Part shown: positions 4,691 to 39,526 of the stretch, piece after piece
Numbering within the stretch: position 1 is the stretch's first letter
Layout: each line of letters begins with the position of its first letter
IMG/VR virus record: IMGVR_UViG_3300029179_000007
Span: 1-43,068 of that record
Reading direction: 5' to 3' (one strand)
DNA from: a virus
Length of the DNA stretch: 43,068 bases
Notes under the pieces: model-generated
Database searches by the model: none
Told to the model about the DNA's origin: nothing
Seen by the model: the letters and a program-made list of their open reading frames with translations, nothing else
Position numbers and translations under genes: made by a program

Positions 4691-5305
4691 ATGTCTCAAG
4701 GTACTATGATCGTCAGCACTGTTAGCGAACTTAAAGATGGCGCCCGTAAAGCTATCGGCTCCTATTCGTTCTACCTGCCGACTCTGGCTGAATTCGGTAT
4801 TCAGGCCGAAGCTAAGCCGGTGTATGAAGGCGAAGGCGAGGAAAAGCAGATTGTAGGCTATGAGTATGAAGGCAATGCTCTTAATTTCCTCGGTAAAGCA
4901 GTAGACGCAGCAGTACGCGCGATGGCCCGTAATAAGCTGCTGCCTAAGTCTGCAACTCTGCGTCCCGGTGCTAAGATGCCGGAAAACTTCCTTGAAGTTA
5001 TTACGCCCGGCGAAGGCCGTGGAGGCTCTGCTGTACTGGCTGAACGTCATGCACTGTTCGCAGCGTGGACTGCGTTTGTTAATGGTCTGGAGCGTCCTGA
5101 AAACGTCAAGAAGCTGCTGATTCTGTTTGTTAAGACTCCTGACGCTCTGCTTACTCAGCCGGAAAAGATCAAAACCACTACCGAGGCGCTGGTAACTCAG
5201 TTTGCTACTGCTGCTGCTGAAGCTGGTAGCCTTACCGAGTGGCAAGCTAATCACCTGAATGGCGTGATTGAGAATTGCGCTGAGAATGGTGAAGCCGGCT
5301 GGTAA
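4691..5305 (+). CDS. 204-aa early protein of unknown function, apparently highly expressed
   Basis: AGGA SD, dedicated promoter and terminator. Codon usage (ctg, cgt, ggc, gct) resembles the capsid gene. I recognise no motif. Confidence 0.8.
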   Translation: MSQGTMIVSTVSELKDGARKAIGSYSFYLPTLAEFGIQAEAKPVYEGEGEEKQIVGYEYEGNALNFLGKAVDAAVRAMARNKLLPKSATLRPGAKMPENFLEVITPGEGRGGSAVLAERHALFAAWTAFVNGLERPENVKKLLILFVKTPDALLTQPEKIKTTTEALVTQFATAAAEAGSLTEWQANHLNGVIENCAENGEAGW

Positions 5306-6101: not shown

Positions 6102-6749
6102 TTGAACATTAAAGACCTACTCAAACAAAATCCAGCATTGCAGCCTAATGAAATCCTAGTCACTAACGTAGAGGAACCCGCTAAAATAACCCTCAGTATG
6201 GACGACCTAGCAGCCGAACTCAGCCTGCCAGTAGAATCTAATAAACCCTCCTCTAGTAGCTCAGCTACTAAACCAGCCCGTTTCTTAATGCAACACTTCG
6301 TCTTATTTTCTACACCCTTGTTTAATGTATTCCTTCAAGGCGTACTACCTATTCCTGCTAGTGGCTTCACCCTTGTAGACTACCTAGCAAACGCAGTAGT
6401 AAAGGCGAACGGTCATCCCTTTACTAAAGAGGCTCCTTCTATCACTGCCGCCTTACTAGAAGAAACTAGAACTAAGCGCACTAAACTCTTTTCAGCAGAA
6501 GGTAAGGAATGGCACTTAGAATTAGTAGCCCGCATTAATAATCATGTAAAGATAGATCCTACTAAATGCTTGCAAAAGCAGCGCGCGTTAGACTCTATCG
6601 CAGCCTATGAAGAAGCGCTAGCTACATTCTTAGTAGATAATGGCTATGATAGTCCTATTGCCTGGATAGAAGCCCACGGCAAACAAATTAATCTAAGCAT
6701 AGGCGCACTAGATTTAAACCAGTTAGGAAAAGATTTCATAGACTTCTAA
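6102..6749 (+). CDS. Hypothetical early protein (215 aa). Initiator or organiser role is speculative.
   Basis: In the frame of ORF 6063..6749. AGGAG lies 8 nt before TTG 6102, giving MNIKDLLKQNP..., which parallels the scaffold N-terminus MNIWDLLRRNNP. The gene follows the iteron-like region. Confidence 0.65.
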   Translation: MNIKDLLKQNPALQPNEILVTNVEEPAKITLSMDDLAAELSLPVESNKPSSSSSATKPARFLMQHFVLFSTPLFNVFLQGVLPIPASGFTLVDYLANAVVKANGHPFTKEAPSITAALLEETRTKRTKLFSAEGKEWHLELVARINNHVKIDPTKCLQKQRALDSIAAYEEALATFLVDNGYDSPIAWIEAHGKQINLSIGALDLNQLGKDFIDF

Positions 6750-6755
6750 CCTAGA

Positions 6756-6786
6756 GGCTGCTTTCTACTGGAGAGCGGCCTTTTTT
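6756..6786 (+). terminator. Rho-independent terminator
   Basis: ggctgct / ttctactggag / agcggcc stem followed by tttttt. Confidence 0.65.
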
Positions 6787-6816
6787 ATTACCAGTCAAAA
6801 AATTAAAAATTGGAGG

Positions 6817-6845
6817 TTGCACTTTTGAAGCCCTTCGCATATAAT
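6817..6845 (+). promoter_or_regulatory. Sigma70-type promoter (TTGCAC-17-TATAAT) with an upstream A-tract
   Basis: Consensus -10 at 6840-6845, preceded by aaaaattaaaaattggagg. Confidence 0.65.
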
Positions 6846-6941
6846 CATGGGGCTTCAGTCTATCCGGCTGATGCAAATGAGAATGGTTCTCATCTAGTTA
6901 CTAAAGTCTTTAAAGACTTCCTAATATATAGGATTAGAAGA

Positions 6942-8009
6942 ATGGACATTAATCTAGTATACGCAATCAAAGAAGTAGCCTCTGGTGGCTTTACTACTAA
7001 GCATAAGCACAATGCTACTAAGCGCAAAGATTGGGCGCCTATTACTAAGAAAGCCGAAGCTATAGGCCGGCAATTAGAAATTAGGACCGAAGCAGAAGCT
7101 ACTGTAATCTGTCCTATTAGTGGCTTGATCGTTCCTTCTGACTTGCCGCCTACTGATAACGCTTTCCTAGTATGCGCGCATCCTATCGTATTTAATGCAC
7201 TAGCAATTATTGATAGTAACGAATACGTTAATAAGCTCAGCGAATCGCAATTGGCTGGCCTTATTCTAGCAATGCTGCACACTCTAGGTAAAGGTAGTAT
7301 TAGTCCTAAGTCTAGCGCCTTTGCAGTTAATGTTAGAATGCAGGCTCTCTTTAAGAAAGAGGAACTGTTAGAGTTTGCAGCATGGATATTCGATAACCTA
7401 GGCCGTACTAACGCCTATTATCCTCCTATTGAACTGTCGCATGAAACCATGCACAAAGGCACCTTCTTAGAATATACTAATTGGGTAGCCAATCTTAGTA
7501 CTGACTTCCTAGTGAGTGGCGTAGAAGAACGAATTATTAAGCCCACAACTCCTAGCACAGAAGTACAGATTAAACGTCTTGATAGCGCAGCTTATGATGA
7601 ATGGCTGGACATGGCTTCTAAGCTGACGCTTCCAAAGTCTTTTGTAGATAAGGCCAAGCCCTATATTAAGAAGCTGGTCAGTACTACTAATGACGACTTG
7701 ATTAATAAGATTTGCAGCAAAGTAGAAGCATTGGCTAAAGATGAAGCCGGAACGATTGGCCTAATAGACTCCACAGAATATCTTGAAATGGCAGCAGTAG
7801 GAGAGATATTCACATTAGAAGTCATGGCCATGCGTAAGAAAGCCGACAAGTTAGGCTACTATAAAGCGCAATTGGATGAATGGGATGCTCCTATTAGTGT
7901 TACTATTGCTTCCACTGGTAGCGTAGAACCTGCACCAGTAGTCAAAGCCGAAGTCGAAAAACCGAAAAAGGTTAATTTCCTAGACCTGCTTAAGAAGAAA
8001 GGGGCTTAA
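6942..8009 (+). CDS. Hypothetical replication-arm protein (355 aa from ATG 6942; the track ORF starts at TTG 6810)
   Basis: The promoter at 6817-6845 lies inside the track ORF. The first in-frame start after the predicted TSS is ATG 6942, with AGGA 8 nt upstream. The C-terminus is ...KPKKVNFLDLLKKKGA. Confidence 0.7.
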   Translation: MDINLVYAIKEVASGGFTTKHKHNATKRKDWAPITKKAEAIGRQLEIRTEAEATVICPISGLIVPSDLPPTDNAFLVCAHPIVFNALAIIDSNEYVNKLSESQLAGLILAMLHTLGKGSISPKSSAFAVNVRMQALFKKEELLEFAAWIFDNLGRTNAYYPPIELSHETMHKGTFLEYTNWVANLSTDFLVSGVEERIIKPTTPSTEVQIKRLDSAAYDEWLDMASKLTLPKSFVDKAKPYIKKLVSTTNDDLINKICSKVEALAKDEAGTIGLIDSTEYLEMAAVGEIFTLEVMAMRKKADKLGYYKAQLDEWDAPISVTIASTGSVEPAPVVKAEVEKPKKVNFLDLLKKKGA

Positions 8010-8010
8010 T

Positions 8011-8325
8011 ATGAACGCTGAATTTAAGCTCAGTAAGGTTAGAAAGCATCCCGAGTTTATTAAAGGCTTCTGTGCTAGTAGCACTATTCGCAAAGGACAG
8101 AAGGTTGTAGTAATTGACGGGCAAACTTGGCAATTACAACTAACAAAAGAACTAGAGGACGCTTTTGATAATCACGGCTTTAATAGTGTAATGTGCATTA
8201 TCAGTTGCCAGACTTATAAGCCTAAAGATAGTAAACCACGATTAATCGCTGTAGCCAAGCCGCACTACTATTCTTCTTACTACACTGCTCTGCGCGAATC
8301 CTACAATGGGAGAATCACAGTATGA
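8011..8325 (+). CDS. Hypothetical protein (104 aa)
   Basis: ATG lies 1 nt after the upstream stop. SD-like AAAGGGG. Confidence 0.7.
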   Translation: MNAEFKLSKVRKHPEFIKGFCASSTIRKGQKVVVIDGQTWQLQLTKELEDAFDNHGFNSVMCIISCQTYKPKDSKPRLIAVAKPHYYSSYYTALRESYNGRITV

Positions 8326-8383
8326 TTAAGGATAAGTAAATAGAGTCCTAGCCCTTAGTAGCTAGGGGCTAGTGCTAAGTTTA

Positions 8384-8413
8384 TTTACAATTAGTTAATT
8401 CATTAGTTAATTA
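8384..8413 (+). promoter_or_regulatory. Possible promoter (TTTACA-18-TAATTA) containing a tandem ttagttaatt repeat
   Basis: Hexamers read by eye. ttagttaatt occurs at 8391-8400 and 8403-8412. Confidence 0.35.
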
Positions 8414-8427
8414 TTGAGGCCAAGAAA

Positions 8428-10437
8428 ATGGCGATTGATTTTAAGTCACTGATTAAAAAGCCTGCTGCTGTTGAAGTAGTAGTCGAACCCAAAGTCGAAG
8501 AACCGAAGCAAGTAGTAGAAGCTCCTAAAGAGCAAAGTGCTGGTATGAGTTTCCTGCAAATGCTTGCTGCTAAGAAAGCAGAACAAGCTCCTAAGCTAGA
8601 GACTCCTGCTGAGATTGCAGTGCATAATGAAATAGTAGAAGATGCTCTGCCTAAGAATGATTTTGTACGCGAAGATAAGCCAGCAGCTAATGCTTTCCTT
8701 GCTAGACTTAATGCTCTTAAAGCCGGTAAACAAGCCGCAACGGTAGCAGAAGCTTCTATTGCTCCTGTATTAGAGCGCAGGGAAACGACTGCCTCTGATA
8801 TGGTACATGGCATTCCTCGTATTGTAGTAGCAGGCAATCCTCTTAACGATGATCAGATGCTAGCTTGTAAGTATGCTATGGAAGGCCAGTCTTGTGTAGT
8901 AACTGGTGCTGCTGGCACAGGTAAAACCACTGCACAAGCTGGCGTAGTACAAATGCTTATGGAACAGGACGCATTTGATACTCACGACTTCAAGTACATA
9001 GGCGAAGCTCCTAGTATTGCTATCTGTGCGTTCACTAAAGTAGCAGTGCGCAACATTGCTAAGGCTATTCGTAAGAATCCTAACATTGCTCAGTTTGCTC
9101 ATCATTGTATGACTATTCATGCTCTGCTTGAGTATGAGCCTGTAAAAGAAGAACGTACTGGAGACGACGGGCTAGCTTATGAAGTTCGTGTATTCCGTCC
9201 GCAACGTACTCAGTATAATCCTCTGCATATTACTCACCTGATCGTAGAAGAAGCTTCAATGGTTGGTACTGATCTTTGGGAAAACTTGTATAACGCTTTG
9301 CTTCCAGGCGTACAGATTATTTTCCTTGGTGATATTAACCAACTGCAGCCAGTATTTGGACGCCCGATCCTAGGCTATGCACTGTGCAAGCTGCCAGTAA
9401 TTGAACTTACTGAAGTTTATCGTCAAGCTCTGGACAATCCTATTATTGCTAATGCTCACAATGTCCTTAAAGGCAAGACTATTGAGACTAGCCCGGATGG
9501 TCGTTGTGCTGTAGTAACTGGCAAATCGAAGTTTAAGATTGGTCAAGATACTACTGCTGTAGCAATGATTAAAATGTTCAAACAGCTCTTTGAAGCTGGA
9601 GAATATGACCCTAATCAGGACATGGTACTGAGTGCATGGAATAAGAAAGCCCTTGGCACTATTAATATCAACGAAGGTATTGCTACTTTCCTTGGAGCTG
9701 CTCGCGGCGCATTAGTACATGAAGTACGCGCAGGCTTTAATCGCTGGTTCTTAGCAGTAGGCGATCGCGTATTAGTAGACAAGCGTGCTGGTACAATCGT
9801 TAAGATAGTAACCAACCCTAAGTATGTAGGCGCAGCTTGTAAGCCTGCTGGTAGCTGGACTCGCGCTGGTGTGCCTATTATTGGCGGTCACTTTGCAGAG
9901 GACGTAGACTTTGACTCAGAAGTAGCTGATGAATCGATTGATTATTCAGACTTCTCGCTTGGTAACGTAGAAGCGGCTAATGAAGAATCTGAATATAAGA
10001 CTCGGGCTGCTAGCCATGTTGTCCATGTAGTCTATTTCGATCAAGTACCTGAAGGTGAAGATCCTATGGACTACACTGGACTTGCAGAAGAACTTAGTAG
10101 CGCAGGCGACTTCCGTAATGAGTTCTTCCAGTTCGGCTATTGCATGACTGTGCATAAGAGCCAAGGTAGTGAGTGGCGTAAAGTGTTTTTTATTAGCCAC
10201 TACGATCATGCTGTAAGCGTTAGTCGTGAGATGCTCTATACTGCGCTAACTCGTGCTCGTGAAGTATTCACTGCATTCTGTAAAGCAGACTTCTTAGAAG
10301 CAGCTGCTAAACGTGCGGAAATCAAAGGCGAATCCTTGCAGGCGAAGATTGAATACTTCACTAAGGGTATTATTGACGTAGCCAATGATGAAGTTAAACT
10401 CATTCCTCCTAGCCTTGACTCACTGAGCCATGAATAG
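8428..10437 (+). CDS. SF1B RecD/Dda-like DNA helicase with a roughly 125-aa low-complexity N-terminal leader
   Basis: Walker A VVTGAAGTGKTT, Walker B LIVEEASMV, and MTVHKSQGSEWRKVF, typical of RecD/TraA-type helicases. Confidence 0.85.
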   Translation: MAIDFKSLIKKPAAVEVVVEPKVEEPKQVVEAPKEQSAGMSFLQMLAAKKAEQAPKLETPAEIAVHNEIVEDALPKNDFVREDKPAANAFLARLNALKAGKQAATVAEASIAPVLERRETTASDMVHGIPRIVVAGNPLNDDQMLACKYAMEGQSCVVTGAAGTGKTTAQAGVVQMLMEQDAFDTHDFKYIGEAPSIAICAFTKVAVRNIAKAIRKNPNIAQFAHHCMTIHALLEYEPVKEERTGDDGLAYEVRVFRPQRTQYNPLHITHLIVEEASMVGTDLWENLYNALLPGVQIIFLGDINQLQPVFGRPILGYALCKLPVIELTEVYRQALDNPIIANAHNVLKGKTIETSPDGRCAVVTGKSKFKIGQDTTAVAMIKMFKQLFEAGEYDPNQDMVLSAWNKKALGTININEGIATFLGAARGALVHEVRAGFNRWFLAVGDRVLVDKRAGTIVKIVTNPKYVGAACKPAGSWTRAGVPIIGGHFAEDVDFDSEVADESIDYSDFSLGNVEAANEESEYKTRAASHVVHVVYFDQVPEGEDPMDYTGLAEELSSAGDFRNEFFQFGYCMTVHKSQGSEWRKVFFISHYDHAVSVSREMLYTALTRAREVFTAFCKADFLEAAAKRAEIKGESLQAKIEYFTKGIIDVANDEVKLIPPSLDSLSHE

Positions 10438-10867
10438 AGAATATGAAATTGAACAGATACTCAGAAGTGCGTTGCTCCTACCGTATGCTCCTCTAGTAGT
10501 ACAAGAGTGGTTGTGCGGTCCTAATCTTGAATCTCGTCTAGCTGGCTTTGCTAATTCTTACACTGACAAATTTTGGACTGGCCTTACTGATAGTACAGTG
10601 CGTGGTGTCTACTGCGTTAATTGCTTTGCAAAGCTTGGAGAATGCGCTGGCGGCGCTTTGAAACGGTCGTGCCCATTCTGCAAGCGGTATAGTAGACAGC
10701 ACTCATTAGCAGCCGCTGCAATAAACAATGTTTTAATAGGCACTTATGCTGAATCAACAGTGTGCAAAGTGCTAGACGAATATCATAGGATTTGGAGCAT
10801 TAGCAATGAGTATCAACAAACAAATGCAAGAACTGGTACGCCAGTTGAAGGAGAACACTGTAGTTAG
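10430..10867 (+). CDS. Hypothetical Cys-rich (zinc-ribbon-like) protein
   Basis: The ATG overlaps the helicase stop (ATGAATAG). Contains CVNC...CPFC. Confidence 0.6.
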   Translation: MNREYEIEQILRSALLLPYAPLVVQEWLCGPNLESRLAGFANSYTDKFWTGLTDSTVRGVYCVNCFAKLGECAGGALKRSCPFCKRYSRQHSLAAAAINNVLIGTYAESTVCKVLDEYHRIWSISNEYQQTNARTGTPVEGEHCS

Positions 10868-11096
10868 TGTAATCCTCTCTGGTGATACTAATATCAGTCA
10901 ATTCAAGCGACGCTTCTCGGTAGTAAAAACCCGTGCAGACGTAGAAGGTAAATTGGACTTTAGTATAGAAGAACTGGATGAAGAATTTATGCTAGCCAAC
11001 TATAACAAAGCTGGCAAAGGTTACAACATGACTATTGTGTTGTTGCCGTATCCTCCAAAGGGTAACATTCTGGACATTAAGACAGGAGATGTGTGA
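10806..11096 (+). CDS. Hypothetical protein (96 aa)
   Basis: GGAG SD 8 nt before ATG 10806. Overlaps the upstream ORF by 62 nt. Confidence 0.6.
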   Translation: MSINKQMQELVRQLKENTVVSVILSGDTNISQFKRRFSVVKTRADVEGKLDFSIEELDEEFMLANYNKAGKGYNMTIVLLPYPPKGNILDIKTGDV

Positions 11097-11674
11097 TGGT
11101 AGACTTTACCGCATTGCTGGCTAAGAAGAAGGCTGAGCGAGAGGCGCAAGGAGGAGTTATTACTCCTGCTCCTGTAGCTTCTGCTACTACTGAAACTCCT
11201 AAGCCTAATAACTTCTTGCAACAACTGGCAGCTAAAGCCGCAAGCAAAGCCGCAGATATTCAGCCTATTGGAGTGCCAGAAGTAGCTCCTATTCCAAAGG
11301 TAATCTCTGCTGCTAACCTTGCTGCTAAGGCTACAGAAGGACAGGCTGAGGCAGAAGTAGCAGGGGATACGAAAGTAGCTCTGGATAATATCCGTCAAAA
11401 AATTCACGATATTCAGGAAATGAATGGCGGAGAACTTAGCGGAGCAATGACTACTCTGCGTGAGATGCTTCGTGCTAACCCTGCTGCTTGCAGTCTCATG
11501 CTACCAGAAGATATGGGCCTTATGGTTCGTGCTCTGCGCAAGATGACTAACAATACTCAAGCTCTTTCCATGGGTGCTGCTAAGACTAGCAAGAAGCCTG
11601 GTAAAGAGAAAGAACTTAGTGTTGAAGAAGTTCTTGCACTAGCTGCGGAGAATGGCACTGATGGCTGGGACTAA
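11096..11674 (+). CDS. Hypothetical protein (192 aa) with an A/K/P-rich N-terminal half
   Basis: TGATG stop/start overlap and AGGAG SD. The N-terminus is MVDFTALLAKKKAE and the C-terminus is ...AAENGTDGWD. Confidence 0.75.
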   Translation: MVDFTALLAKKKAEREAQGGVITPAPVASATTETPKPNNFLQQLAAKAASKAADIQPIGVPEVAPIPKVISAANLAAKATEGQAEAEVAGDTKVALDNIRQKIHDIQEMNGGELSGAMTTLREMLRANPAACSLMLPEDMGLMVRALRKMTNNTQALSMGAAKTSKKPGKEKELSVEEVLALAAENGTDGWD

Positions 11675-11711
11675 CACTCCCTTAATGAACAAACAAATAG
11701 GAAGTCCAGCA

Positions 11712-11912
11712 ATGAAAAACCCTAAGACTTATTTTATCGCAATGCCGTCTGGTCAGAATCGTAAAGTTCGTGGTCTGCTTGTTCAGACTAAAGGCTCTAT
11801 GGGAGAAGATTTGCTCAAAGGTGAGATTATTGTTGCTCGTGTAGGAGAGCATATTCTTACTGAGCAAACTACTATCAACGTGACTGACTGCACTGTAACT
11901 ATTAAGGGGTAG
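11712..11912 (+). CDS. Hypothetical protein (66 aa)
   Basis: AGGAAG SD before ATG 11712 (MKNPKTYFIAMP...). The track ORF begins upstream at 11652, inside the previous gene. Confidence 0.55.
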   Translation: MKNPKTYFIAMPSGQNRKVRGLLVQTKGSMGEDLLKGEIIVARVGEHILTEQTTINVTDCTVTIKG

Positions 11913-11915
11913 GCT

Positions 11916-12113
11916 ATGGATAAACTAATATTAATATCCTTAGCAAAAGCAGCATTTAAAAAAGAACTACTGCAATATGCTAAAAACGAGGAGGACAAAG
12001 TTAAGGTAACGCCGATTGTAAGAGAGCATTATGGAGACTGCGACATGCCAATTAAAAAACCTCGCAAGTCTAAAGGTGAAAAGCATCGTAATCGTAAGAA
12101 TCGCTGGAGCTAA
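11916..12113 (+). CDS. Hypothetical basic protein (65 aa)
   Basis: AAGGGG SD and tight packing. Confidence 0.6.
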   Translation: MDKLILISLAKAAFKKELLQYAKNEEDKVKVTPIVREHYGDCDMPIKKPRKSKGEKHRNRKNRWS

Positions 12114-12116
12114 GTC

Positions 12117-12383
12117 ATGCCTAAGGCAATCTGCAAAGGTCTTAATCTTCGTCCACTACAGAAACAATTGCGTCAAGAACTTGGTGATCTTGCCCGCTTT
12201 CAGCACCTGTACAATAGTCTCAAGAGCAAAGGTATCATAGTAGAACCCTTGTACCTAGACTACGAAGCTGCACGGGCAACGATCTACGAACGCTACAACG
12301 CCCACAAGAATCATATGATTCAAGCTCATAAAGATCGGGAGAAAATCAATGCGCGTAACGTATCACAGTATCTCCCATTCTAG
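12117..12383 (+). CDS. Hypothetical protein (88 aa)
   Basis: GGAG SD. The ATG is 3 nt after the upstream stop. Confidence 0.65.
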   Translation: MPKAICKGLNLRPLQKQLRQELGDLARFQHLYNSLKSKGIIVEPLYLDYEAARATIYERYNAHKNHMIQAHKDREKINARNVSQYLPF

Positions 12384-12525
12384 TTGCGTGCGCTGCGAAG
12401 ATGTAGGCATTGAGTACGTTGTACTATGGCCACTTCATGACGCAGGCGAAATTAAACTTCTAATTGCTTGGAGTAAGCTACCATGGGTACAGAAGAAAGC
12501 GGGCGGAAGGAAGTCTATGAGTTAG
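12349..12525 (+). CDS. Possible 58-aa ORF filling the 12384-12482 gap (too short for the ORF track)
   Basis: GGGAG SD before ATG 12349 (MRVTYHSISHSSCVRCEDVG...). It overlaps both neighbours by 35 and 43 nt, so it is uncertain. Confidence 0.3.
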   Translation: MRVTYHSISHSSCVRCEDVGIEYVVLWPLHDAGEIKLLIAWSKLPWVQKKAGGRKSMS

Positions 12526-12677
12526 CAGTAAAGTGGCCAGGAGAAGAATGGGACATAGAAGTCTATACAAACGAGCAAGCAGTGCGCAATAGAACTAAGC
12601 ACCTACTCAGTATTCATCCTACTGAGCGGCCCAAGTTCTATTGCGAGCACAATGATAAGACCATCGTAAAAGGGTGA
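12483..12677 (+). CDS. Hypothetical protein (64 aa)
   Basis: GGAG SD 9 nt before the ATG. Confidence 0.6.
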   Translation: MGTEESGRKEVYELAVKWPGEEWDIEVYTNEQAVRNRTKHLLSIHPTERPKFYCEHNDKTIVKG

Positions 12678-12679
12678 GC

Positions 12680-12886
12680 ATGAAACGAATAAAGATCATC
12701 CGAAAGAAAAACGGAAAGGCTTACTATATTCTTTTTGCTCGTAAAAATAAAAAAGGTTTTTATACCTTTTGGAAGTTTTCGCACAAAGTAGAATGTGCAA
12801 AGCCTTTCGACGCTAAGGACGCTATCAGTATGCGTGACGCGTTAGTTAAGAAGTACAACTTCGAAATTCAGATCGAGGCAATCTAA
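12680..12886 (+). CDS. Hypothetical basic protein (68 aa from ATG 12680)
   Basis: AAAGGG SD 5 nt before ATG 12680. The track start, GTG 12674, has no spacer. Confidence 0.6.
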   Translation: MKRIKIIRKKNGKAYYILFARKNKKGFYTFWKFSHKVECAKPFDAKDAISMRDALVKKYNFEIQIEAI

Positions 12887-13104
12887 TGAAATATTACACG
12901 GAAGAAGAAGTACAAGAGATAGTACTCAATGCTGTAGTAGCAGGCTTTAATATTACCTCCTATCGCGTGAATGCTGAGAACTGCGGCACGATAGAAGAAT
13001 GTCTGAGCAAAGGTACTAAAGAAATCTGGCATTCTGTAGCTATTGATGCTTGCAAAACGGAAGCCAATGCAATTCTCAAAGAACTTAATGTACAGGAGAT
13101 TTAA
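12886..13104 (+). CDS. Hypothetical protein (72 aa)
   Basis: TAATG stop/start overlap. Confidence 0.6.
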   Translation: MKYYTEEEVQEIVLNAVVAGFNITSYRVNAENCGTIEECLSKGTKEIWHSVAIDACKTEANAILKELNVQEI

Positions 13105-13106
13105 TA

Positions 13107-13361
13107 ATGTCTACTGCAAAAGCTGCACCGCGCAAGTTGAAAGTTGGTGATAAAGTAATCTTCATGCTGCATGATGACACTGGCTATCAAGGTTCCATTA
13201 AGCGCAACGTCTGGCATGAAGGTACTGTAGACTATATATCTGATACAGGCGTAATGCATATAGAGTTTATGCACCACTTGAACTTCTGTTCTCTGCTTAA
13301 GTATGTGCATACAAATTGCCAAGCTCTTGGGCGTATTACTATCATTCGCAAGGTGTCCTAA
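13107..13361 (+). CDS. Hypothetical protein (84 aa)
   Basis: AGGAG SD 8 nt before the ATG. Confidence 0.65.
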   Translation: MSTAKAAPRKLKVGDKVIFMLHDDTGYQGSIKRNVWHEGTVDYISDTGVMHIEFMHHLNFCSLLKYVHTNCQALGRITIIRKVS

Positions 13362-13362
13362 G

Positions 13363-14394
13363 ATGGAACTCGATCTTACTAGACCGCTTGGCGAGATAGA
13401 ATTGCCTAGTGGAGTAGTGTTCACGCCTCCTCCTGGCACTATTCTTATGAATGATCCGACGGCTAAAGTTCGTCTGTCTCATTCTACTAATGCTCTGATG
13501 CACTCGTGCGAGCGCAAGTTTCAAAAGACTAAGCTGCTACTGAGCCGGCATCCTCGTGATGAGACTCCCGCTACTGCTTTCGGTAAAGGCTTTGGTGCAG
13601 CAGTACAGCACTACATGGTCCTTCGTACTATGGGTGAGAATGCTCAAGTAGCAATCGACTCAGCAATCTATGAAGGCGTACTTAACTGGGGTACGCCTAG
13701 TGTGTATGACGATCGACGTTTTATTGAGCGTCTGGTATACGTCATTCAGCTTAGTCAATCATTCTCTGAGCGTATGCTTATGGAATGGGAGATTGCTGAG
13801 TTCAATGGACGGTTCGCTACTGAGCTTTCGTTCAAGATCAATATTACTGATCGCTACTACTTCGTAGGTTATATTGACCTTGTACTGCGCAATGTAAAGA
13901 ACGGTCGCTATGCTCCTACCGACTATAAAACTACGTCTATTACTGGCGAGGACTTAACTCCGCACTTTAAGTTTAGTGACCAAGTACTAGGCTATTCCAT
14001 TGTACTAGACGCCATTGTTGGTAAGCACCTTACTGACTTTGATGTCAACTACTGGGTAGCGCAGCTAGCTAATCATGGTAAAGCTGCTATGTGGAATGCT
14101 AACTTTAGAGACTATAGCTTCCCTAAAACTTTGCGCGATCGCTTTGAGTGGTTCCTTAAACTGTACTTGGACGTAAACTATATTGAGTCTTTGAAAGACC
14201 TTGAGGTTTACCCACGTCGTAATGCTTGCCGTGCGTACAACCGTACCTGTCAGTTCTTTGGTGAATGCCAGTTCACTGAGACTGATCAATTTGCTCCATA
14301 CATTCCAGATGATATGGTCTATGACTTTGAGTTCGAGTTGAACGATCTGTTCATGGATCACCAAGAGCGGCTTAATATAATAACGAGGGCTTAA
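13363..14394 (+). CDS. Cas4/RecB-like PD-(D/E)XK nuclease with a Cys cluster
   Basis: GYIDLVL...PTDYKTT nuclease core. One N-terminal Cys (MHSCERKF) plus C-terminal CRAYNRTCQFFGEC suggests a 4Fe-4S cluster. ATG 13363 has an AAGGTG SD and follows the upstream stop. Confidence 0.75.
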   Translation: MELDLTRPLGEIELPSGVVFTPPPGTILMNDPTAKVRLSHSTNALMHSCERKFQKTKLLLSRHPRDETPATAFGKGFGAAVQHYMVLRTMGENAQVAIDSAIYEGVLNWGTPSVYDDRRFIERLVYVIQLSQSFSERMLMEWEIAEFNGRFATELSFKINITDRYYFVGYIDLVLRNVKNGRYAPTDYKTTSITGEDLTPHFKFSDQVLGYSIVLDAIVGKHLTDFDVNYWVAQLANHGKAAMWNANFRDYSFPKTLRDRFEWFLKLYLDVNYIESLKDLEVYPRRNACRAYNRTCQFFGECQFTETDQFAPYIPDDMVYDFEFELNDLFMDHQERLNIITRA

Positions 14395-14396
14395 TC

Positions 14397-14672
14397 ATGT
14401 GGGCTGAATATCTGATAGTGTTTATACTGTTGATATGTGCTGTATTTGCAGTAAGCAAATGGATTCTTGTAGACGCAGAAACGGATGAGCTAGAGTTGGA
14501 CCTTCTAGCCATTCGCAATAAAGACGTGTCTACGGATTACGCATACCAAGTAAACGTATCATCTCTGCGGGATGAGTACACCTGCTACAAAGAACTGATG
14601 CACAAGAGCCAGCACATAATGAGCTATGATGACTGGCTCATTCAACGTATCGTAATTGAACAAGGGGAATAG
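14397..14672 (+). CDS. Small membrane-anchored protein (91 aa)
   Basis: N-terminal hydrophobic segment YLIVFILLICAVFAVSKWIL. GAGGG SD. Confidence 0.65.
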   Translation: MWAEYLIVFILLICAVFAVSKWILVDAETDELELDLLAIRNKDVSTDYAYQVNVSSLRDEYTCYKELMHKSQHIMSYDDWLIQRIVIEQGE

Positions 14673-14674
14673 GC

Positions 14675-14917
14675 ATGGATGACCTATCTAAAATTTTCAA
14701 TAAGCAAATAGCGGACTTGGGTAAGCTGCGAAAAGATACCTGTACTGCTATCCTTATTGGACGTAATCAGCTCAAGGCTGTAGAAGAAAATCTTACTATG
14801 TATAAAGTAGAAGATCCTTCTATGCTTGGTAAGATGTTTTTGCATGGTATTCCCTTTATCAAAGTGGATGCCGATGACTATCTCAAATTCGTTTATGGAG
14901 AAATTCGCAATGACTAA
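14675..14917 (+). CDS. Hypothetical protein (80 aa)
   Basis: AAGGGG SD and tight packing. Confidence 0.65.
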   Translation: MDDLSKIFNKQIADLGKLRKDTCTAILIGRNQLKAVEENLTMYKVEDPSMLGKMFLHGIPFIKVDADDYLKFVYGEIRND

Positions 14918-15551
14918 TACCATCCGCGTTATTAGTATCGACTGTGAAACCACTGCTCTTAACCATATCCTAGGCCATGCCTGGGCTATTGGTATTGCAT
15001 GGACTGACTATCCTCTGAGTCATGTAATTGGAGCTGTGTATAAGCAGCCTATTTGTCATGAGCTGATTGAGATTGCTATTCCTAAGCAGTGGTGGGATGG
15101 CGAGACTTTCCGTTTCTGTATGAAACATAATAGCACTCGGCTTAATGAACTGATGGTTAAGGCTGCACAACATGAACAAGAGCATGGCGTGTTTGATTCT
15201 TTTGAAGCTGTAGAGTTGTACATTCAAGATCAAGCCGCAACAAAATTAGCTGCTACTGTACAGAACCTTATTCGTGGGCTAGGCAAAGAGGATTATATTG
15301 TAGTATTTAATCATCCTGATTTTGACGTTCCCTTCCTGCAAAAGATTTGGCCAGGCTTCAAGGATAAAGGCTTCTACTACCGCAATATTAAAGATATGCA
15401 GTCGCTTATCGAAGGCCATCTTGGTAGATTGCAAGCAGCTCAATACCTTAAGGCTAGTAAAGAAGCTATCGGGGGAGTTAAGCATTCAGCCGTAGACGAT
15501 GCTATCAACCAGCTTAAGACGCTGATTGGTAGTGGAGCAATCAAGAAATAG
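14910..15551 (+). CDS. DEDDh (DnaQ-like) 3'-5' exonuclease
   Basis: ExoI VISIDCETTAL, ExoII VVFNHPDFDVPFL, ExoIII HSAVDDA. ATG 14910 overlaps the upstream stop (ATGACTAA). Confidence 0.8.
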   Translation: MTNTIRVISIDCETTALNHILGHAWAIGIAWTDYPLSHVIGAVYKQPICHELIEIAIPKQWWDGETFRFCMKHNSTRLNELMVKAAQHEQEHGVFDSFEAVELYIQDQAATKLAATVQNLIRGLGKEDYIVVFNHPDFDVPFLQKIWPGFKDKGFYYRNIKDMQSLIEGHLGRLQAAQYLKASKEAIGGVKHSAVDDAINQLKTLIGSGAIKK

Positions 15552-15570
15552 ACTACGAAAAATTTTGGGG

Positions 15571-15599
15571 TTGCAAATTTTGCAATCGGCGGGTATAGT
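15571..15599 (+). promoter_or_regulatory. Sigma70-type promoter (TTGCAA-17-TATAGT) with an upstream A/T tract
   Basis: Hexamers at 15571-15576 and 15594-15599, preceded by aaaaattttgggg. Confidence 0.6.
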
Positions 15600-15647
15600 G
15601 GGCAGACATGACGCCTCGAATTATTAGTCTATCTGGAGCTAGTTATA

Positions 15648-16592
15648 ATGAATCTCCTGCAAGCAATTAAGGCTGCTAATCAGGCTGGTTCGATTCTTAA
15701 AAGGAATCATACTTTCTTGATCTACGGTGAGCCTAAGACTGGTAAGACTCGTCTAGTAGCAACGATCATTAAGATCCCTGAGCTGAAACGAATTTTCTGG
15801 TTCGATACTGAGAACGGAATTGAAACAATCCTGACAATGTATCGTGAAGGTTTCTTCACTAATGAGGAGATGGAAAAGGTTATCCTCATTAGAATTCCTG
15901 ATACTCGTGAACAGCCTACGGCTATTGAGACGATGCTCAAAGCAATCGCTAGTAAGAACGCTGTAAAGATTTGCGAAGAACACGGTAAGGTTAATTGCCT
16001 TGACTGTACTCAGAAGCTTAAGCCTATGATTGAGTTTGATCATAAGAGTCTTACTCCTGAGGATGCCATAGTAATTGACTCTATGTCGCAAGTTGGTGCT
16101 AGTGCTCTGAACGCAGCTTGTATTGGTAAAGCTTCCGAGTACAAACCAACCTTCGATGATTACGGTGCGTGCGGTAAATGGCTTGGTGATTTGTGTACTG
16201 TGATTCAAGCCGCTGCTTATTGCCACTTCTTTGCAGTTACACACACTCTGGAAATCACTGACGAAGATACTAAAAAGACAACGATCTATCCGTTGTGCGG
16301 TACTAAGAACTTCAGTATGAACTTTGCCAAATACTTTGGTAATGTAATCTACACTGACAAGATTCTGAAAAAGCACAAAGCAATTTCGACTACTACTGGC
16401 AATCAACAGACTCATGCTGGTAGTCGTCTTGGCCTGAAGCTGGATAGTATGGCCGACCCGAATCTCTGTACGCTACTGACTGACGAAAAGTTCTTTAGTG
16501 TTGCAGAAGATACTACCACTGAGGTAGTGCAACAACCTGCTACTGAGGCTAAACCCAAAGTAGTTCCTAACTTCCTGAACCGTAAGCAATGA
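15648..16592 (+). CDS. RecA-like AAA ATPase (AAA_24 / Sak4-like recombination ATPase)
   Basis: Walker A FLIYGEPKTGKT, Walker B AIVIDSMS. About 300 aa, located in the recombination module. Confidence 0.7.
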   Translation: MNLLQAIKAANQAGSILKRNHTFLIYGEPKTGKTRLVATIIKIPELKRIFWFDTENGIETILTMYREGFFTNEEMEKVILIRIPDTREQPTAIETMLKAIASKNAVKICEEHGKVNCLDCTQKLKPMIEFDHKSLTPEDAIVIDSMSQVGASALNAACIGKASEYKPTFDDYGACGKWLGDLCTVIQAAAYCHFFAVTHTLEITDEDTKKTTIYPLCGTKNFSMNFAKYFGNVIYTDKILKKHKAISTTTGNQQTHAGSRLGLKLDSMADPNLCTLLTDEKFFSVAEDTTTEVVQQPATEAKPKVVPNFLNRKQ

Positions 16593-16603
16593 GGAATACC
16601 AAG

Positions 16604-17113
16604 ATGTCTATTCTCGATCTGGATGCAATGCTGAGCCAAAACCTGGAAACCGTAGAAGCTGCTCCTGAGTTCGTTACTCTGGAAACTGGCGTATACGATC
16701 TGAAAGTAGTAAAGGTCGATGCTAAGAAGCGCGAGTCTAAAGATAAAGCTGCGGCTGCTGCTGCTGGTAAGGCTACTGAGTGGTTCGACCTGGTAATTAC
16801 TTACGGTGTAGAAAATACTGTGAGTCTGGAAAAGTCTGATGCTCTGCCTCCGAAGCCTGGTAGCCTGATTCAAGAGAACTTCCAGTTCACTGATAAAGGT
16901 CTGCCGTACTTCAAGTCTCGCGTAGTAGCTATCGCTGTAGCTATGGGCGGTACTGAAGCTGATGCTAATAGCCTGTCTCCGAAAGACGTTATGGATACTT
17001 TCCCTGGCGTTGCTACTTTCCGTGCCAACGTCAAGAAGAACGTCGAGAATGGCGTAGGCGATAAGGTCTACGAGAAGAACCGCATTACCAACGTAGTTGC
17101 TGTTCCGGCTTAA
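16604..17113 (+). CDS. Abundant replication-module protein, possible ssDNA-binding protein
   Basis: GAGGA SD 8 nt before ATG 16604. Strongly optimised codons. Sits between the ATPase and PolA. The SSB assignment rests on position only. Confidence 0.45.
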   Translation: MSILDLDAMLSQNLETVEAAPEFVTLETGVYDLKVVKVDAKKRESKDKAAAAAAGKATEWFDLVITYGVENTVSLEKSDALPPKPGSLIQENFQFTDKGLPYFKSRVVAIAVAMGGTEADANSLSPKDVMDTFPGVATFRANVKKNVENGVGDKVYEKNRITNVVAVPA

Positions 17114-17563: not shown

Positions 17564-19975
17564 ATGAACGTGCTAGTTAATTATGATCCTGCAGAAGCTA
17601 AGTATCTTAAAGCCTTGGATTATTTTGTACGTTCAGCTGGGCATAGCGCAGTAGTAACCAATAAGACTCTAACTCCGTACGAGATGGACTTGTACGCTAC
17701 TAGAGCGAATTGCTCTGCGGTAATCATTGCCAATGTAAAGACTCTTAAGAATTATGTAGACGACGAGAAGCCCACGCTCGATGCTTGGCGCGGTTCGCGT
17801 ATTAATAAAGGTGTGCCGGCTATTGTTGTAGATTCTCTGAGCAACATTTATGCTAAGCCTGAAGGCGACTTCTTGTTCCGTCGTGACTTGGCCAAAGTAT
17901 CTAAAACAATAGTACCACCCCGGAAGTTTAAGTATTCTGTTCTTAAGCGTGTAGATCAATTTCCTAAATGGCTGGAGCTTTGCAATCAAGCTGTAGCTAT
18001 CGGTCTCGACATTGAGACTAACCAGCATAGCCGTAAAAAGAATCCAAAGACTAGCACTAAAGTTCCTTGCTTCGATGATGAGACGTTGGATATTGCCGGG
18101 CTTGGTGAGACTTGGATTACTGTTCTTTCTATTAGCATTATGCTAGAGGACGGTAGGTTAGAAACTTGCGTGCTGCCTCTGGTAAACGGTCGCCAGGATT
18201 TCTGGGAACTAGACTCTGAATACGCTGCTGCTATTAAGTTCATGCAAGATGTCTGTGCAACGAAAGCTCCCAAAGTATTTCATAACGGACTGTATGACTG
18301 CTTCCATTTGATCCGCTATAATTGCTATCCAGAGAATTGGTGTCTTGATACTATGGCACTTAGCTGGTGCTGGTATTCTGAACTGCCTAAAGATTTGGGC
18401 TTCTTGTCTAGTTGGCTACTGTATGATGCTGAGTATTGGAAGTGGCTGTCTGACAAAGAACATAAAGTAGTAGGTAATATCGAAGACTACTGGATGTATG
18501 CTGCAAAAGATACTTGGTATATGATGCGTAACTTGCAAGAGCTTCTGCTGCAAGGTAGTCATTGGATGTTCACTAACTACTACTTCCAGTTCCCTCTAGT
18601 CTACCCATCTATCTATTCTGCTTTTGAGGGTATGCTTGTAAACAACACTACTAGGCTTAAGCTTCTTGACAGAGCTAGGGTAGAAGTTGATGCAGAGTTG
18701 GCTAAGATTCGCGTCATGACCGATGATGCTAAGTTTAATCCTAGCTCTCCTCAACAAAACTCCTCTTTCCTCTATGATGTATTAGGCGCAGCTAGACCAC
18801 CGCGTGCAAAGAGTGTATCTGCTACTGGTAAGAAAGAACGTCGCTTTGTATCTAGCCAGCATCCTATGATTGCTATGTTCACTGATGCGCTTGACAACTA
18901 CGCTAAGAATGCTAAGGGTATTTCTCAATACTTTAAGTTTATTCAGTGGAATGGTAGGCTGCTATGGGGTCTTGATCCTTTTGGTACTGAGACTTCTCGC
19001 TTTGCTAGTCGTAAATCTCATGCTTGGGTTGGTGCTCAAATTCAGAACCAGCCTCCGTATGCTAAGGAAATGTATGAGCCAGACCCAGGATATTTGCTAT
19101 TTGAAATTGACTACTCGAAAGCTGAAGCTATTTGTACTGCTTATCTTAGCCAATGTATCGCTCTCATTATTGCTCTTGTTGAACCTGAGCTAGACAGTGA
19201 AGGAGAGAAGAAAGACTTCTACAAAGTTCTAGGTGAACTGTTCTTTGGAATGAAGTACGAGGATGTAACTAAAGAGTTTCGTAATAAAGTTCTCAAGAAG
19301 ATTCAGCACGGTACTAACTACATGATGGGCGGTGCTACCTTCCTTGATAACCTGGAAGATTTCTCCGTTATCTTCCTTGCTGCTGAAATGCTTGGCTATG
19401 TTATTACTCCTGAACCTAAAGCGCCTAACGAGTTTACTGCTGTGCAGTTTGCTACTAAGCTGCTGGACTCCTACCACATTCCGTTCCCTGAAGTTAGTGC
19501 TTGGTGGGAAAGTATCCGTAACGAAGTAGCTTCTACTCATATGCTTGTAAACCCTCACGGCTTTGTTCGTTACTTCTTTGGTGATGCTGGCAAGAATCAT
19601 GCAGTTTGGCGTAGTGCAGTAGCCCATCAACCACAGTCTACTTCTGTGGGTAACTTGAACAAGGGTTATCTCAAAGCGTACAAATTCGCAGCAAGTTTAA
19701 AAGATAAATCCATTCTCAGAATCAAAACACAAATCCACGATAGTTTGTTAGGACAGGTAAAGATCGAGTACGCTATGGCAATTATTCCATTGCTTGCTGA
19801 TCTACTTGTCGCAAGGCAGGAAATATATGGTAGACAAATGGTTATCCCGGTTGAGATCGAGGTGACTAATACTAACTGGAAGGATAAGAAATCGTGGAAG
19901 GATTTTTCAGAGACTATTTTGCCTACGCTGGGGAGTCAGAAGTCCCTGACACCTTCAACCGTTGGACTGCAATAA
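17564..19975 (+). CDS. Family A DNA polymerase with a 3'-5' exonuclease domain and a roughly 140-aa N-terminal extension
   Basis: Exo motifs IGLDIETN, FHNGLYDCFHL, YAAKDTWY. Pol motif A LFEIDYSKAEA, motif B RNKVLKKIQHGTNYMMG, motif C TQIHDSLLG. Confidence 0.9.
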   Translation: MNVLVNYDPAEAKYLKALDYFVRSAGHSAVVTNKTLTPYEMDLYATRANCSAVIIANVKTLKNYVDDEKPTLDAWRGSRINKGVPAIVVDSLSNIYAKPEGDFLFRRDLAKVSKTIVPPRKFKYSVLKRVDQFPKWLELCNQAVAIGLDIETNQHSRKKNPKTSTKVPCFDDETLDIAGLGETWITVLSISIMLEDGRLETCVLPLVNGRQDFWELDSEYAAAIKFMQDVCATKAPKVFHNGLYDCFHLIRYNCYPENWCLDTMALSWCWYSELPKDLGFLSSWLLYDAEYWKWLSDKEHKVVGNIEDYWMYAAKDTWYMMRNLQELLLQGSHWMFTNYYFQFPLVYPSIYSAFEGMLVNNTTRLKLLDRARVEVDAELAKIRVMTDDAKFNPSSPQQNSSFLYDVLGAARPPRAKSVSATGKKERRFVSSQHPMIAMFTDALDNYAKNAKGISQYFKFIQWNGRLLWGLDPFGTETSRFASRKSHAWVGAQIQNQPPYAKEMYEPDPGYLLFEIDYSKAEAICTAYLSQCIALIIALVEPELDSEGEKKDFYKVLGELFFGMKYEDVTKEFRNKVLKKIQHGTNYMMGGATFLDNLEDFSVIFLAAEMLGYVITPEPKAPNEFTAVQFATKLLDSYHIPFPEVSAWWESIRNEVASTHMLVNPHGFVRYFFGDAGKNHAVWRSAVAHQPQSTSVGNLNKGYLKAYKFAASLKDKSILRIKTQIHDSLLGQVKIEYAMAIIPLLADLLVARQEIYGRQMVIPVEIEVTNTNWKDKKSWKDFSETILPTLGSQKSLTPSTVGLQ

Positions 19976-35756: not shown

Positions 35757-35758
35757 GG

Positions 35759-39083: not shown

Positions 39084-39526
39084 TATTCAGATGCCTCTAC
39101 TTTTTCGTATACTCCAGCCTTAACTAGCGATTCCAATTCTTCAAGCATATCTTCAGACACCGTCAATGGGAAAAAGAAACGCCCGCCTACTTGAGCAGCC
39201 GTTTGACCTTTGACTCGTCCTTTACTAATTGAATAGTAACCAGGAGTAGCCATGCCATCCTCAGCAGCGCCGAACTGACTAAAACCATAAGCAGGAGAAG
39301 GTACTGCGGTAATGGAATTATCCATACCGACATTAATACCGCCCATAAGGTTATTAAGAGCCTCGTGAGCCGCAGCCAGGTCAGGACGGTCCTGCACTAT
39401 AGAAGTATCAGGCGTAGTAAGTTCAGTCAGAGCTGCTGAGTCTACACTCGGAGCTGCTACAGTAGCAGTTTCCTCTTGTGCGGCCTCATTTTGAGTATTT
39501 TTGAGCTTATTCAGAAAATCGGTCAT
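39083..39526 (-). CDS. Hypothetical head-module protein (147 aa)
   Basis: AGGAG SD 6 nt before the ATG. Follows the post-capsid terminator. The N-terminus is MTDFLNKLKN. Confidence 0.6.
   Translation of the reverse strand: MTDFLNKLKNTQNEAAQEETATVAAPSVDSAALTELTTPDTSIVQDRPDLAAAHEALNNLMGGINVGMDNSITAVPSPAYGFSQFGAAEDGMATPGYYSISKGRVKGQTAAQVGGRFFFPLTVSEDMLEELESLVKAGVYEKVEASE

Follow-up and report, generated by a model that had tools for sequence, protein, structure and literature searches.

A conserved helix-forming peptide tag on replication proteins of podophages related to 119X and PaP2, a candidate docking motif

The 43,068-bp IMG/VR record IMGVR_UViG_3300029179_000007, analyzed here over its full length (positions 1 to 43,068, the window), is essentially a complete podophage genome in which several proteins of the plus-strand replication arm carry one kind of short peptide, hereafter the tag. 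It appears to be an autonomously folding, mildly basic alpha-helix of about 10 to 12 residues, placed on a disordered Pro/Ala/Glu/Lys-rich tether or repeated within one. Across a large, mostly uncultured clade related to phages 119X and PaP2, at least six protein families are tagged, and the tag is under strong purifying selection at the peptide level. We regard the tag with considerable confidence as a short linear motif for protein docking with a common receptor, and on balance, by a small inclination, we prefer as the whole explanation a docking tag with gp16604, the phage SSB (a protein that binds single-stranded DNA), as favored receptor. A preliminary description of this DNA had proposed a short peptide on a Pro/Ala/Glu/Lys-rich tether common to several replication-arm proteins, for which no equivalent was known. 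The peptide is indeed conserved at termini while the linkers diverge, and literature searches on the phage family, on short linear motifs in phage replisomes and on tethered docking peptides found no description of the motif.

All eight peptides quoted in that description are present in the window, at coordinates within about 12 nt of the recomputed ones, and a ninth copy was found beyond the range covered before. The copies, with scores from the matrices described below and the open reading frame (ORF) of each carrier, are:

6102..6134, plus strand: copy 1, N-terminus of gp6102 (ORF 6102-6749), MNIKDLLKQNP, a variant with Ile at the first hydrophobic position
7965..8006, plus strand: copy 2, C-terminus of gp6942 (ORF 6942-8009), KKVNFLDLLKKKGA up to the stop; 16.2 bits (119X matrix), 8.3 bits (clade matrix)
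8428..8469, plus strand: copy 3, N-terminus of the Dda/RecD2-like SF1B helicase (ORF 8428-10437), MAIDFKSLIKKPAA; 12.4 bits (119X matrix)
8542..8583, plus strand: copy 4, internal, residues 39-52 of the helicase leader, GMSFLQMLAAKKAE; 18.2 bits (clade matrix, window excluded)
8689..8730, plus strand: copy 5, internal, residues 88-101 of the helicase leader, NAFLARLNALKAGK; 8.3 bits (clade matrix), 10.1 bits (119X matrix)
11096..11137, plus strand: copy 6, N-terminus of gp11096 (ORF 11096-11674), MVDFTALLAKKKAE
11207..11248, plus strand: copy 7, internal, residues 38-51 of gp11096, NNFLQQLAAKAASK; 18.4 bits (clade matrix)
16551..16589, plus strand: copy 8, C-terminus of the Sak4-like AAA_24 ATPase (ORF 15648-16592), KPKVVPNFLNRKQ up to the stop; degenerate and truncated
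39491..39526, minus strand: copy 9, new, N-terminus of the protein of ORF 39083-39526, MTDFLNKLKNTQ

The N-terminal copies directly follow start codons with a GGAG, AGGAG or GAGG ribosome-binding site 7 to 8 nt upstream: TTG with GGAG at 8 nt in gp6102, ATG with GAGG in the helicase, and ATG with AGGAG at 7 nt in gp11096. Every copy had been placed at or near a terminus; this held for most, but three of the original eight (helicase residues 39-52 and 88-101, gp11096 residues 38-51) are internal to disordered leaders. The linkers are richer in Ala, Glu, Lys, Pro, Ser, Thr and Gln than the proteome as a whole (0.56 to 0.66 of residues versus 0.43).

Tags occupy the same termini in orthologues from 119X, Polaromonas phage Tiera, EBPR podovirus 3 and 67 metagenomic relatives, at 25 to 58% protein identity and with linkers that cannot be aligned; in closer homologues of gp11096 and gp6102 the tags are retained as the linkers gain and lose residues. 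The gp6102 copy is the variant N-I-K-D-L-L-K, and N-I-K-D-L-[LI]-K is kept in all 10 homologues inspected (15 were found), with the next ~50 residues varying; its 119X orthologue, gp57, begins MANSSFLKSLLQ. Orthologues of gp6942 end in KETFLEKMARIKREKNNG (119X gp56), VLSFLEKLALKKKGITQ (EBPR podovirus 3 gp58) and MSFLETVKYKK (Tiera), and 19 of 20 gp6942-like genes have a match of ≥10 bits in the C-terminal part, no more than about 100 residues from the stop (18 of them at ≥12 bits). The helicase leader (residues 1 to ~130) falls outside the region homologous to other helicases. In 119X the helicase gp54 carries the motif as MAINFKDLIKAK, with which it begins, ELSFLQKMLEKK and TLSFLDRMKAAR; at the place equivalent to copy 5 it has TLSFLDRMKAARQ. 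The N-terminal tag of gp11096 is kept in eight homologues, the most distant of which has the clade-type PPLTLKERLRLAAAKA there; the second copy corresponds to KPLTFAEKMALKK in relatives, and the tags of 119X gp44, the orthologue, are MDFKAFREKAR and VNSFLARLKSK. The end of the window Sak4, PNFLNRKQ, scores below the matrix thresholds and takes the same position as the clear C-terminal tags of its orthologues, EKPSFLAGLKKK in 119X gp36 and KPLSLKEKLALKSQGQ in Tiera.

The tag had been described as a mark of replication-arm proteins. Several of them do carry it, but the ninth copy lies on a gene between the major capsid gene (39605-40840) and an SU10-like head-tail adaptor gene (38463-39083), which widens the description. 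This post-capsid protein has the layout of the replication proteins, with a tag, a disordered linker and a domain of ~70 residues, and so do its orthologues in 119X, Tiera and several metagenomic relatives. The orthologues are tagged in 119X (gp14, GNFLANLKSKAAE) and Tiera (MSLADLRAQQAAR), and among metagenomic relatives at least 9 of 27 distinct post-capsid genes reach ≥5 bits, e.g., MTTIAEKLAASKAA and LSFAERLAKAKQE.

To measure the recurrence, we used matrices made from relatives only, a set of 67 related loci having been drawn from IMG/VR with a Sak4 profile (72 loci in total, 357,602 amino acids). A matrix from nine 119X tags gave seven window matches of ≥10 bits against 0.81 in shuffled sequences (0 of 300 shuffles), six of which were copies already known. 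The clade matrix, with 15 columns derived from 44 tags of relatives and the window left out, gave five matches of ≥8 bits against 0.37 (0 of 200 shuffles reached five) and two of ≥16 bits against 0.01. Enrichment over shuffles was seen in the window and in four reference phages, and over the 72 loci there were 129 matches of ≥12 bits versus 1 to 4 in shuffled proteomes, an excess of about 60-fold. The expectation that the motif would be commoner than in shuffled sequences is thus borne out. An artifact of the composition of Ala/Lys-rich linkers was rejected on the strength of the within-protein shuffles and of position-specific conservation. A repeat at the DNA level was rejected too: the aligned tag codons of the window copies have 42% nucleotide identity and use differing synonymous codons, which indicates that selection acts on the peptide.

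The motif first proposed, F/I-x-D/x-L-L-basic, is present in the window but proved too narrow for the clade, whose consensus is K-P-L-[ST]-[LF]-[AK]-E-[RKI]-[LIM]-A-[AL]-K-K-A-A (also written with [KP]-x ahead of [ST], and with the core [ST]-[LF]-[AK]-E-x-[LIM]-A-[AL]-K-K), exemplified by KPLSLAERLALKKK and MTSLKDILAAKKAA. Among the 44 clade tags, a Ser/Thr N-cap is found in 42 and Glu at N3 in 34, followed by Ala at positions 6 and 7 and Lys-Lys at positions 8 and 9. The lineage of the window and 119X has a variant with Phe at +1, Leu, Lys or Thr at +2 and no Glu, the window form being S/N-F-L-x-x-L, and on the same proteins Tiera and EBPR podovirus 3 have the variant [ST]-[LF]-K-E-K-[LI]-A-x-K-K. 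Ser or Thr followed by Glu three residues on is the classical helix N-terminal capping box, and by the rules of helix capping an Ala-rich middle and C-terminal Lys favor a short autonomous helix. The consensus therefore reads as a capping box, an Ala-rich helix and Lys-Lys, and specificity likely resides in hydrophobic residues at +1, +4/+5 and at times +8. The tag is predicted to be helix-forming in the AlphaFold2 model of gp11096 also, with helices at the tags (residues 4 to 16, pLDDT ~55, and 40 to 49) of low confidence and without firm packing. A search of the PDB with Foldseek gave no match for the gp11096 core domain.

Across the clade, the tag is restricted to the termini and linkers of a fixed set of families. 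Five of these account for 115 of the 129 matches: the helicase (tagged in 27 of 42), gp11096-like proteins (14 of 40), Sak4 (18 of 71), gp6942-like proteins (18 of 20) and family 16, a family of 125- to 200-residue proteins (7 of 13). No tag was found on the family-A DNA polymerase PolA (0 of 64), the PD-(D/E)XK exonuclease (0 of 60) or gp16604-like proteins (0 of 41) in the loci scanned, and DUF3987 proteins gave three weak matches in 56 genes. Of the 113 distinct tags, 28 are no more than 9 residues away from the first start codon, and another 28 no more than 22 from the stop. A further 10 could be N-terminal, should their ORFs have been called too long, and the remainder sit in leaders or tails.

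Helicase leaders of relatives span 60 to 260 residues and hold one to three tags (starts such as MTSLKDILAAKKAA and MTTLAELIAAKKAK; also PRSLAEMLAAKKAA and KPISFLEKLRLKK). Sak4 is dimorphic, some members ending right after the core and others having a disordered, unalignable tail of 30 to 60 residues that ends in a tag, as in KPLSLAERLALKK, KTMSFAERMALKKKQ and RPLTLAEKLAAKKAAA; its position in the relatives is:

about 10001-10950 in most loci from L005 to L071: Sak4 orthologues, in tail-less or tagged-tail forms

Each genome has two to five strong tags, on different protein sets by sub-clade: one sub-clade tags Sak4 and gp11096-like proteins, with the helicase optional, and another tags the helicase, gp6942-like proteins and family 16. 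Since genomes keep this number of strong tags and spread them over different proteins, the tag behaves as a portable module, and its distribution indicates movement between carrier proteins during the evolution of the clade.

How might such a peptide work? The helix would act as a plug that brings the helicase (three copies), gp11096 (two), gp6942, gp6102, Sak4 and one late protein to one receptor, concentrating the tagged proteins at one place, and multiple copies would provide avidity for an arrayed or oligomeric receptor. The receptor may be the phage SSB gp16604 on single-stranded DNA (ssDNA), in which case the polarity of the classical SSB interactome would be reversed, with the clients bearing the tether, and gp11096 and gp6102, each with a basic N-terminal tag and an acidic/aromatic C-terminal tip, would be adaptors supplying the missing SSB tail in trans. 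That gp16604 in particular is the common receptor is a tentative assignment. It is favored because it would be a natural hub for a RecD2/Dda-like helicase and Sak4 and has lost the peptide that normally makes those contacts, and because proteins that have a literal SSB tip besides the tag resemble SSB tails of a detachable kind, which would need an anchor to SSB or ssDNA.

The candidate receptor and the part of it that matters here are:

16604..17113, plus strand: gp16604, predicted OB-fold DUF669/N4-SSB-like ssDNA-binding protein, immediately downstream of sak4, untagged
16604..16669, plus strand: acidic amphipathic N-terminal segment of gp16604, MSILDLDAMLSQNLETVEAAPE

Structure prediction places gp16604 among OB-fold, DUF669-like SSBs. 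Its AlphaFold2 model has a pLDDT of 92 (alignment of 101 sequences), and Foldseek returned as top PDB matches SSB and OB-fold proteins (PrgE, E value 4e-3; bacterial SSBs; the T4 gp32-Dda complex) and, in the BFVD, DUF669 proteins with E values of 1e-5 to 1e-6. The Pfam sequence signal of the family is marginal (6 of 101 members, best E value 0.004), PHROGs lists it as of unknown function, and a sequence search of the PDB with the family profile found nothing. DUF669 is the N4-type SSB family, typically adjoining sak4 and typically with an acidic C-terminal tail (PMC4889955, PMC5928155). In HK620, the last six residues of the DUF669 SSB recruit Sak4 to SSB-coated ssDNA (PMC5928155), and RecD2 reportedly works together with SSB (PMC8989531). 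None of the 101 members of the gp16604 family has an acidic/aromatic C-terminal tip. Over their first 22 residues the median net charge is -5 (consensus LDALLDASMDDLDDLPP), and this acidic N-terminus takes the place of the acidic C-tail that is usual in DUF669 SSBs.

A second class of terminal peptide, acidic/aromatic and separate from the basic tags, occurs in the same genomes:

11615..11671, plus strand: acidic/aromatic C-terminal helix and tip of gp11096, LSVEEVLALAAENGTDGWD up to the stop, ending in ..ENGTDGWD; helix at residues 176-185 in the AlphaFold2 model
6729..6746, plus strand: acidic/aromatic C-terminal tip of gp6102, KDFIDF up to the stop, the tag being at the opposite end
8534-8860 in locus L028: further locus listed for this class

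Since gp11096 has tags and an acidic/aromatic tip, it bears both peptide classes; its relatives end in LTAEEIAAAFDEL, AELAAALDDEDF or ..ELADALNSDEF. The IDF end of gp6102 is kept even in a 42%-identical homologue, and 119X gp57 ends in ..SEMDW. Several small proteins of relatives end with the E. coli SSB signature DDDIPF, and an N-terminal tag and a DDDIPF tip are found together in two proteins, Tiera ORF 35735-36172 (L002, minus strand) and ORF 5705-6124 of L031. Also in this class are the tip of gp4691 (..NGEAGW, window 5285-5302) and the ends ..DDEDF and ..EEIAAAFDEL in relatives. Co-occurrence of tag and acidic tip has a Fisher P value of 5e-4, but the signal comes from one family, the gp11096-like proteins, and was therefore set aside as independent evidence.

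A fuller and more speculative version, to which we give rather low odds, is an SSB interactome of reversed polarity, in which a tail-less SSB is the dock for tethered basic capping-box helices on the helicase, Sak4 and other clients. The tags would possibly pair with the conserved acidic N-terminal amphipathic helix of the SSB; gp11096, gp6102 and the DDDIPF-tipped adaptors of relatives would plug in by their tags and present a surrogate SSB tail; and the tags, being multivalent, would build up a factory for replication and recombination on ssDNA.

Several observations weigh against docking on gp16604. The tag is also on the late-operon protein between the capsid and adaptor genes, for which an ssDNA-bound receptor is not an obvious explanation. 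In a sister clade (loci L154 and L155) the acidic SSB N-terminus is better conserved and only the helicase N-terminal helix is tag-like; because this clade keeps the acidic N-terminus with few tags, the SSB N-helix has a function independent of many tags. Phage N4 has a related SSB, Sak4 and a Dda-like helicase, and its replication proteins are without tags. The N4 SSB (L156, 15322-16119) ends in ...SAAKSLFGKK, with a slight likeness to the tag, the other replication proteins of N4 being untagged. In the gp11096 model, no confident docking in cis was seen: the tags are helical at low confidence and do not pack confidently. Finally, Sak4 or the capsid protein served to collect every locus, so that no receptor can be singled out by co-occurrence, and phyletic profiling was uninformative, as all candidate receptors are universal in the clade.

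The same docking helix might instead be received by another untagged phage protein, the N-terminal domain of PolA (residues 1 to ~150), the replicative helicase/primase-like DUF3987 protein gp19894 or the Sak4 core, candidates that together we think unlikely. PolA and the exonuclease are untagged and DUF3987 nearly so, and all three are universal in the clade. The T7 polymerase is the receptor for terminal peptides of helicase and SSB, and the N-terminal domain of PolA is conserved from residue 1 in nearly all loci, with no match in Pfam or in a PDB sequence search. This domain does not discriminate among receptors, however, because the sister-clade version appears related to it (motifs in common by eye, without a profile comparison), and a monomeric polymerase gives no reason for two or three tags per client. 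An oligomeric helicase or a Sak4 filament would account for multicopy tags, but Sak4 is itself tagged in many genomes. Mimicry by the tags of the Sak4 N-terminal helix, in the manner of BRC repeats, was also considered and rejected: Sak4 N-termini are only loosely tag-like, similar in composition only (median -3.4 bits), and the Rad51 FxxA/BRC motif does not fit, the residue at +4 from F/L being Arg, Lys or Ile, not Ala.

Alternatively, the receptor could be a conserved host protein, a reading we find more doubtful than the preceding one. The candidates are the beta sliding clamp, host SSB, DnaK, RNA polymerase and, if the tags mimic the C-terminal peptide of FtsZ, FtsA/ZipA; in each case the tags would hijack a host hub. 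The tag is unusually constant across phages with 25 to 50% identical proteins and different hosts, which fits a slowly evolving receptor; a host hub would account for the tag on a late protein; and the clade clearly mimics host SSB tips (DDDIPF). The window Sak4 end PNFLNRKQ also resembles the FtsZ tail DIPAFLRKQAD, but this likeness is confined to one window copy. Against the FtsZ consensus D-[IV]-P-x-F-[LM]-[RK]-[RKN], Pro is found at -3 in 17 of 44 tags and at -2 in 4 of 44, and Phe at +1 in 7 of 44; N-terminal and internal copies do not fit an FtsZ mimic either. Nor does the clade consensus have the defining residues of clamp motifs (Q-L-[SD]-L-F or Q-L-x-L-x-L), with no conserved Gln and with Ala or Glu as the equivalent of the terminal Phe/Leu (K-P-L-S-L-A-E-R-L); no clamp gene was recognized among the proteins scanned. 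We know of no host motif matching [ST]-L-A-E-x-[LI]-A-A-K-K.

The preliminary description had left the choice between a docking peptide and a membrane-targeting helix. Docking fared better, and membrane targeting, possible but less likely, is weakly disfavored. That the tags are amphipathic helices of the MinD/FtsA type, gathering replication proteins on the inner membrane, seems improbable to us, although the terminal position, the Lys/Arg that follow, the several copies per protein or oligomer and the tagged late protein would all be accommodated, and the window variants F-L-x-x-L-K-K resemble the E. coli MinD GFLKRLF, some with hydrophobic moments of 0.46 to 0.58. The moments are 0.14 to 0.41 in clade tags and 0.19 to 0.58 in window tags, HeliQuest-type discriminants 0.56 to 1.21 and 0.71 to 1.18, respectively, all copies lying below the lipid-binding threshold of 1.34, whereas four of five MinD-, FtsA- and MreB-type reference sequences score >1.5. 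Each tag has only two or three large hydrophobic residues, and conservation is highest at the Ser/Thr cap, at N3 (Glu) and in Ala-Ala, which argues for helix stability and tight protein packing over a lipid-facing surface. Membrane helices usually tolerate sequence drift, and the tags do not show it.

Least probable by far is a network of stickers and spacers (a replication condensate) that needs no single folded receptor, the helices binding one another or else acidic terminal helices on other phage proteins: multivalency (three tags on the helicase, two on gp11096), long disordered spacers and the coexistence of basic tags with acidic terminal helices, at times on one protein, would suit it, but each helix has only two to three turns, there is no indication of self-affinity, and in the AlphaFold2 model of gp11096 no confident pairing is seen between the tags and the acidic C-terminal helix of that protein.

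As to genomic context, the window had no match in a nucleotide-level search of the phage collection. Its helicase, which is RecD2-like, and its DUF3987 protein have counterparts at 53 to 58% identity in Pseudomonas phages 119X, PaP2 and the PaMx phages (Fredfastierviridae, Jamesmcgillvirus); the kinship is more distant with Polaromonas phage Tiera, EBPR podovirus 3 and Aeromonas phage P5; the hosts and sources of relatives include Pseudomonas, Polaromonas and wastewater and freshwater metagenomes. The next relatives, Caulobacter phage Kuura and Vibrio phage VS-ABTNL-3, have only PolA and a primase-like protein in common with the window and no tags. The plus-strand arm runs gp6102, gp6942, RecD2/Dda-like SF1B helicase, gp11096, PD-(D/E)XK exonuclease, DnaQ-like exonuclease, Sak4-like AAA_24 ATPase, gp16604, family-A DNA polymerase with an extra N-terminal domain, DUF3987 protein and MazG-like protein. 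The designation of gp6942 as initiator-like drew no support from Pfam, PHROGs or NCBIfam.

Other features of the window were observed in passing. The extra N-terminal domain of PolA (17564 to ~18100, ~150 residues) is alpha/beta-looking and contains MNVLVNYDPAEAKYL...WRGSR.... The last 82 nt of the polymerase gene (window 19894-19975) overlap the DUF3987 gene (gp19894), which starts with GTG (MEGFFRDYFAY...); an overlap of 82 nt is also annotated in 119X (27447-27528), and it is 19 nt in Tiera. On the minus strand, 23381-28942 encodes a protein of 1,853 residues without a Pfam domain, conserved end to end with 119X gp25 (phrog_16165). No RNA polymerase gene was recognized among the ORFs scanned in the window, and a virion-borne cryptic enzyme within this giant protein is for that reason conceivable.

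For the question of how enzymes of replication, recombination and repair work in concert, phage replisomes offer the simplest models. In the wiring known so far, it is acidic tails on the SSB or the helicase that make the connections (E. coli, T4, T7, HK620). The tag gives gp6102, gp6942, gp11096, family 16 and the post-capsid protein a functional handle, as parts of one interaction network. The 12-residue peptide can be used as bait for the hub, and the cultured relatives 119X, PaP2 and the PaMx phages allow genetics; in practice, it would be a portable recruitment tag for phage engineering and recombineering.

Recruitment to a hub by short motifs is already known, from SSB C-terminal peptides (SSB-Ct), clamp-binding motifs, T7 acidic tails and RPA-binding motifs. 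Clamp-binding motifs are bacterial QL[SD]LF or QLxLxL and, in T4, the gp45-binding C-terminal peptides of gp43, gp33 and gp55; the likeness is that one short hydrophobic peptide, N-terminal, C-terminal or internal to a disordered region, lets several replication and transcription proteins compete for one hub. The MinD, FtsA and MreB helices and the FtsZ C-terminal peptide are alike in being a terminal short helix after a flexible linker, and some window variants are superficially like GFLKRLF (MinD) and PAFLRKQ (FtsZ), but the clade consensus matches neither and is less amphipathic. T7 (background in PMC10359462 and PMC12339929) offers another small phage replisome held by terminal peptides, the acidic C-terminal tails of gp2.5 and gp4 that bind the gp5 polymerase. 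The acidic/aromatic tips of gp6102 (..DFIDF) and gp11096 (..DGWD) resemble these tails; the tag, unlike them, is basic, helical, N-terminal and internal too, and found in more protein families. The SSB-Ct (...DDDIPF) interactome, including the HK620 pair of DUF669 SSB and Sak4, shares with the window a hub-and-spoke wiring through a short peptide on a disordered linker, the clients Sak4 and SF1B helicase, and a DUF669-type SSB adjoining sak4 (PMC5928155, PMC4889955, PMC10164576). In those systems the hub bears one acidic peptide ending in Phe; here the clients bear a basic, helical one (net charge +1 to +3), and the SSB is without an acidic C-tail.

The literature searched describes neither this motif nor its spread over at least six families, its portability or its occurrence alongside acidic-tip adaptors and a DUF669-like SSB that is tail-less. 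For the proposed polarity, the closest analogue is that of the RPA32C-binding motifs of UNG2, XPA, RAD52, SMARCAL1, TIPIN and NEIL1, helix-forming peptides in a disordered region by the catalytic domain that bind the same SSB surface (PMC11387677). Here too, a short helix-forming motif lies in a disordered region of several unrelated DNA-processing proteins, and the client would carry the plug. The analogy is one of mechanism only, with no kinship in sequence or evolution, the receptor there being a winged-helix domain that is absent from gp16604. If the receptor of the tag is indeed the tail-less SSB, it would show that an SSB interactome is able to reverse its polarity, as in eukaryotic RPA.

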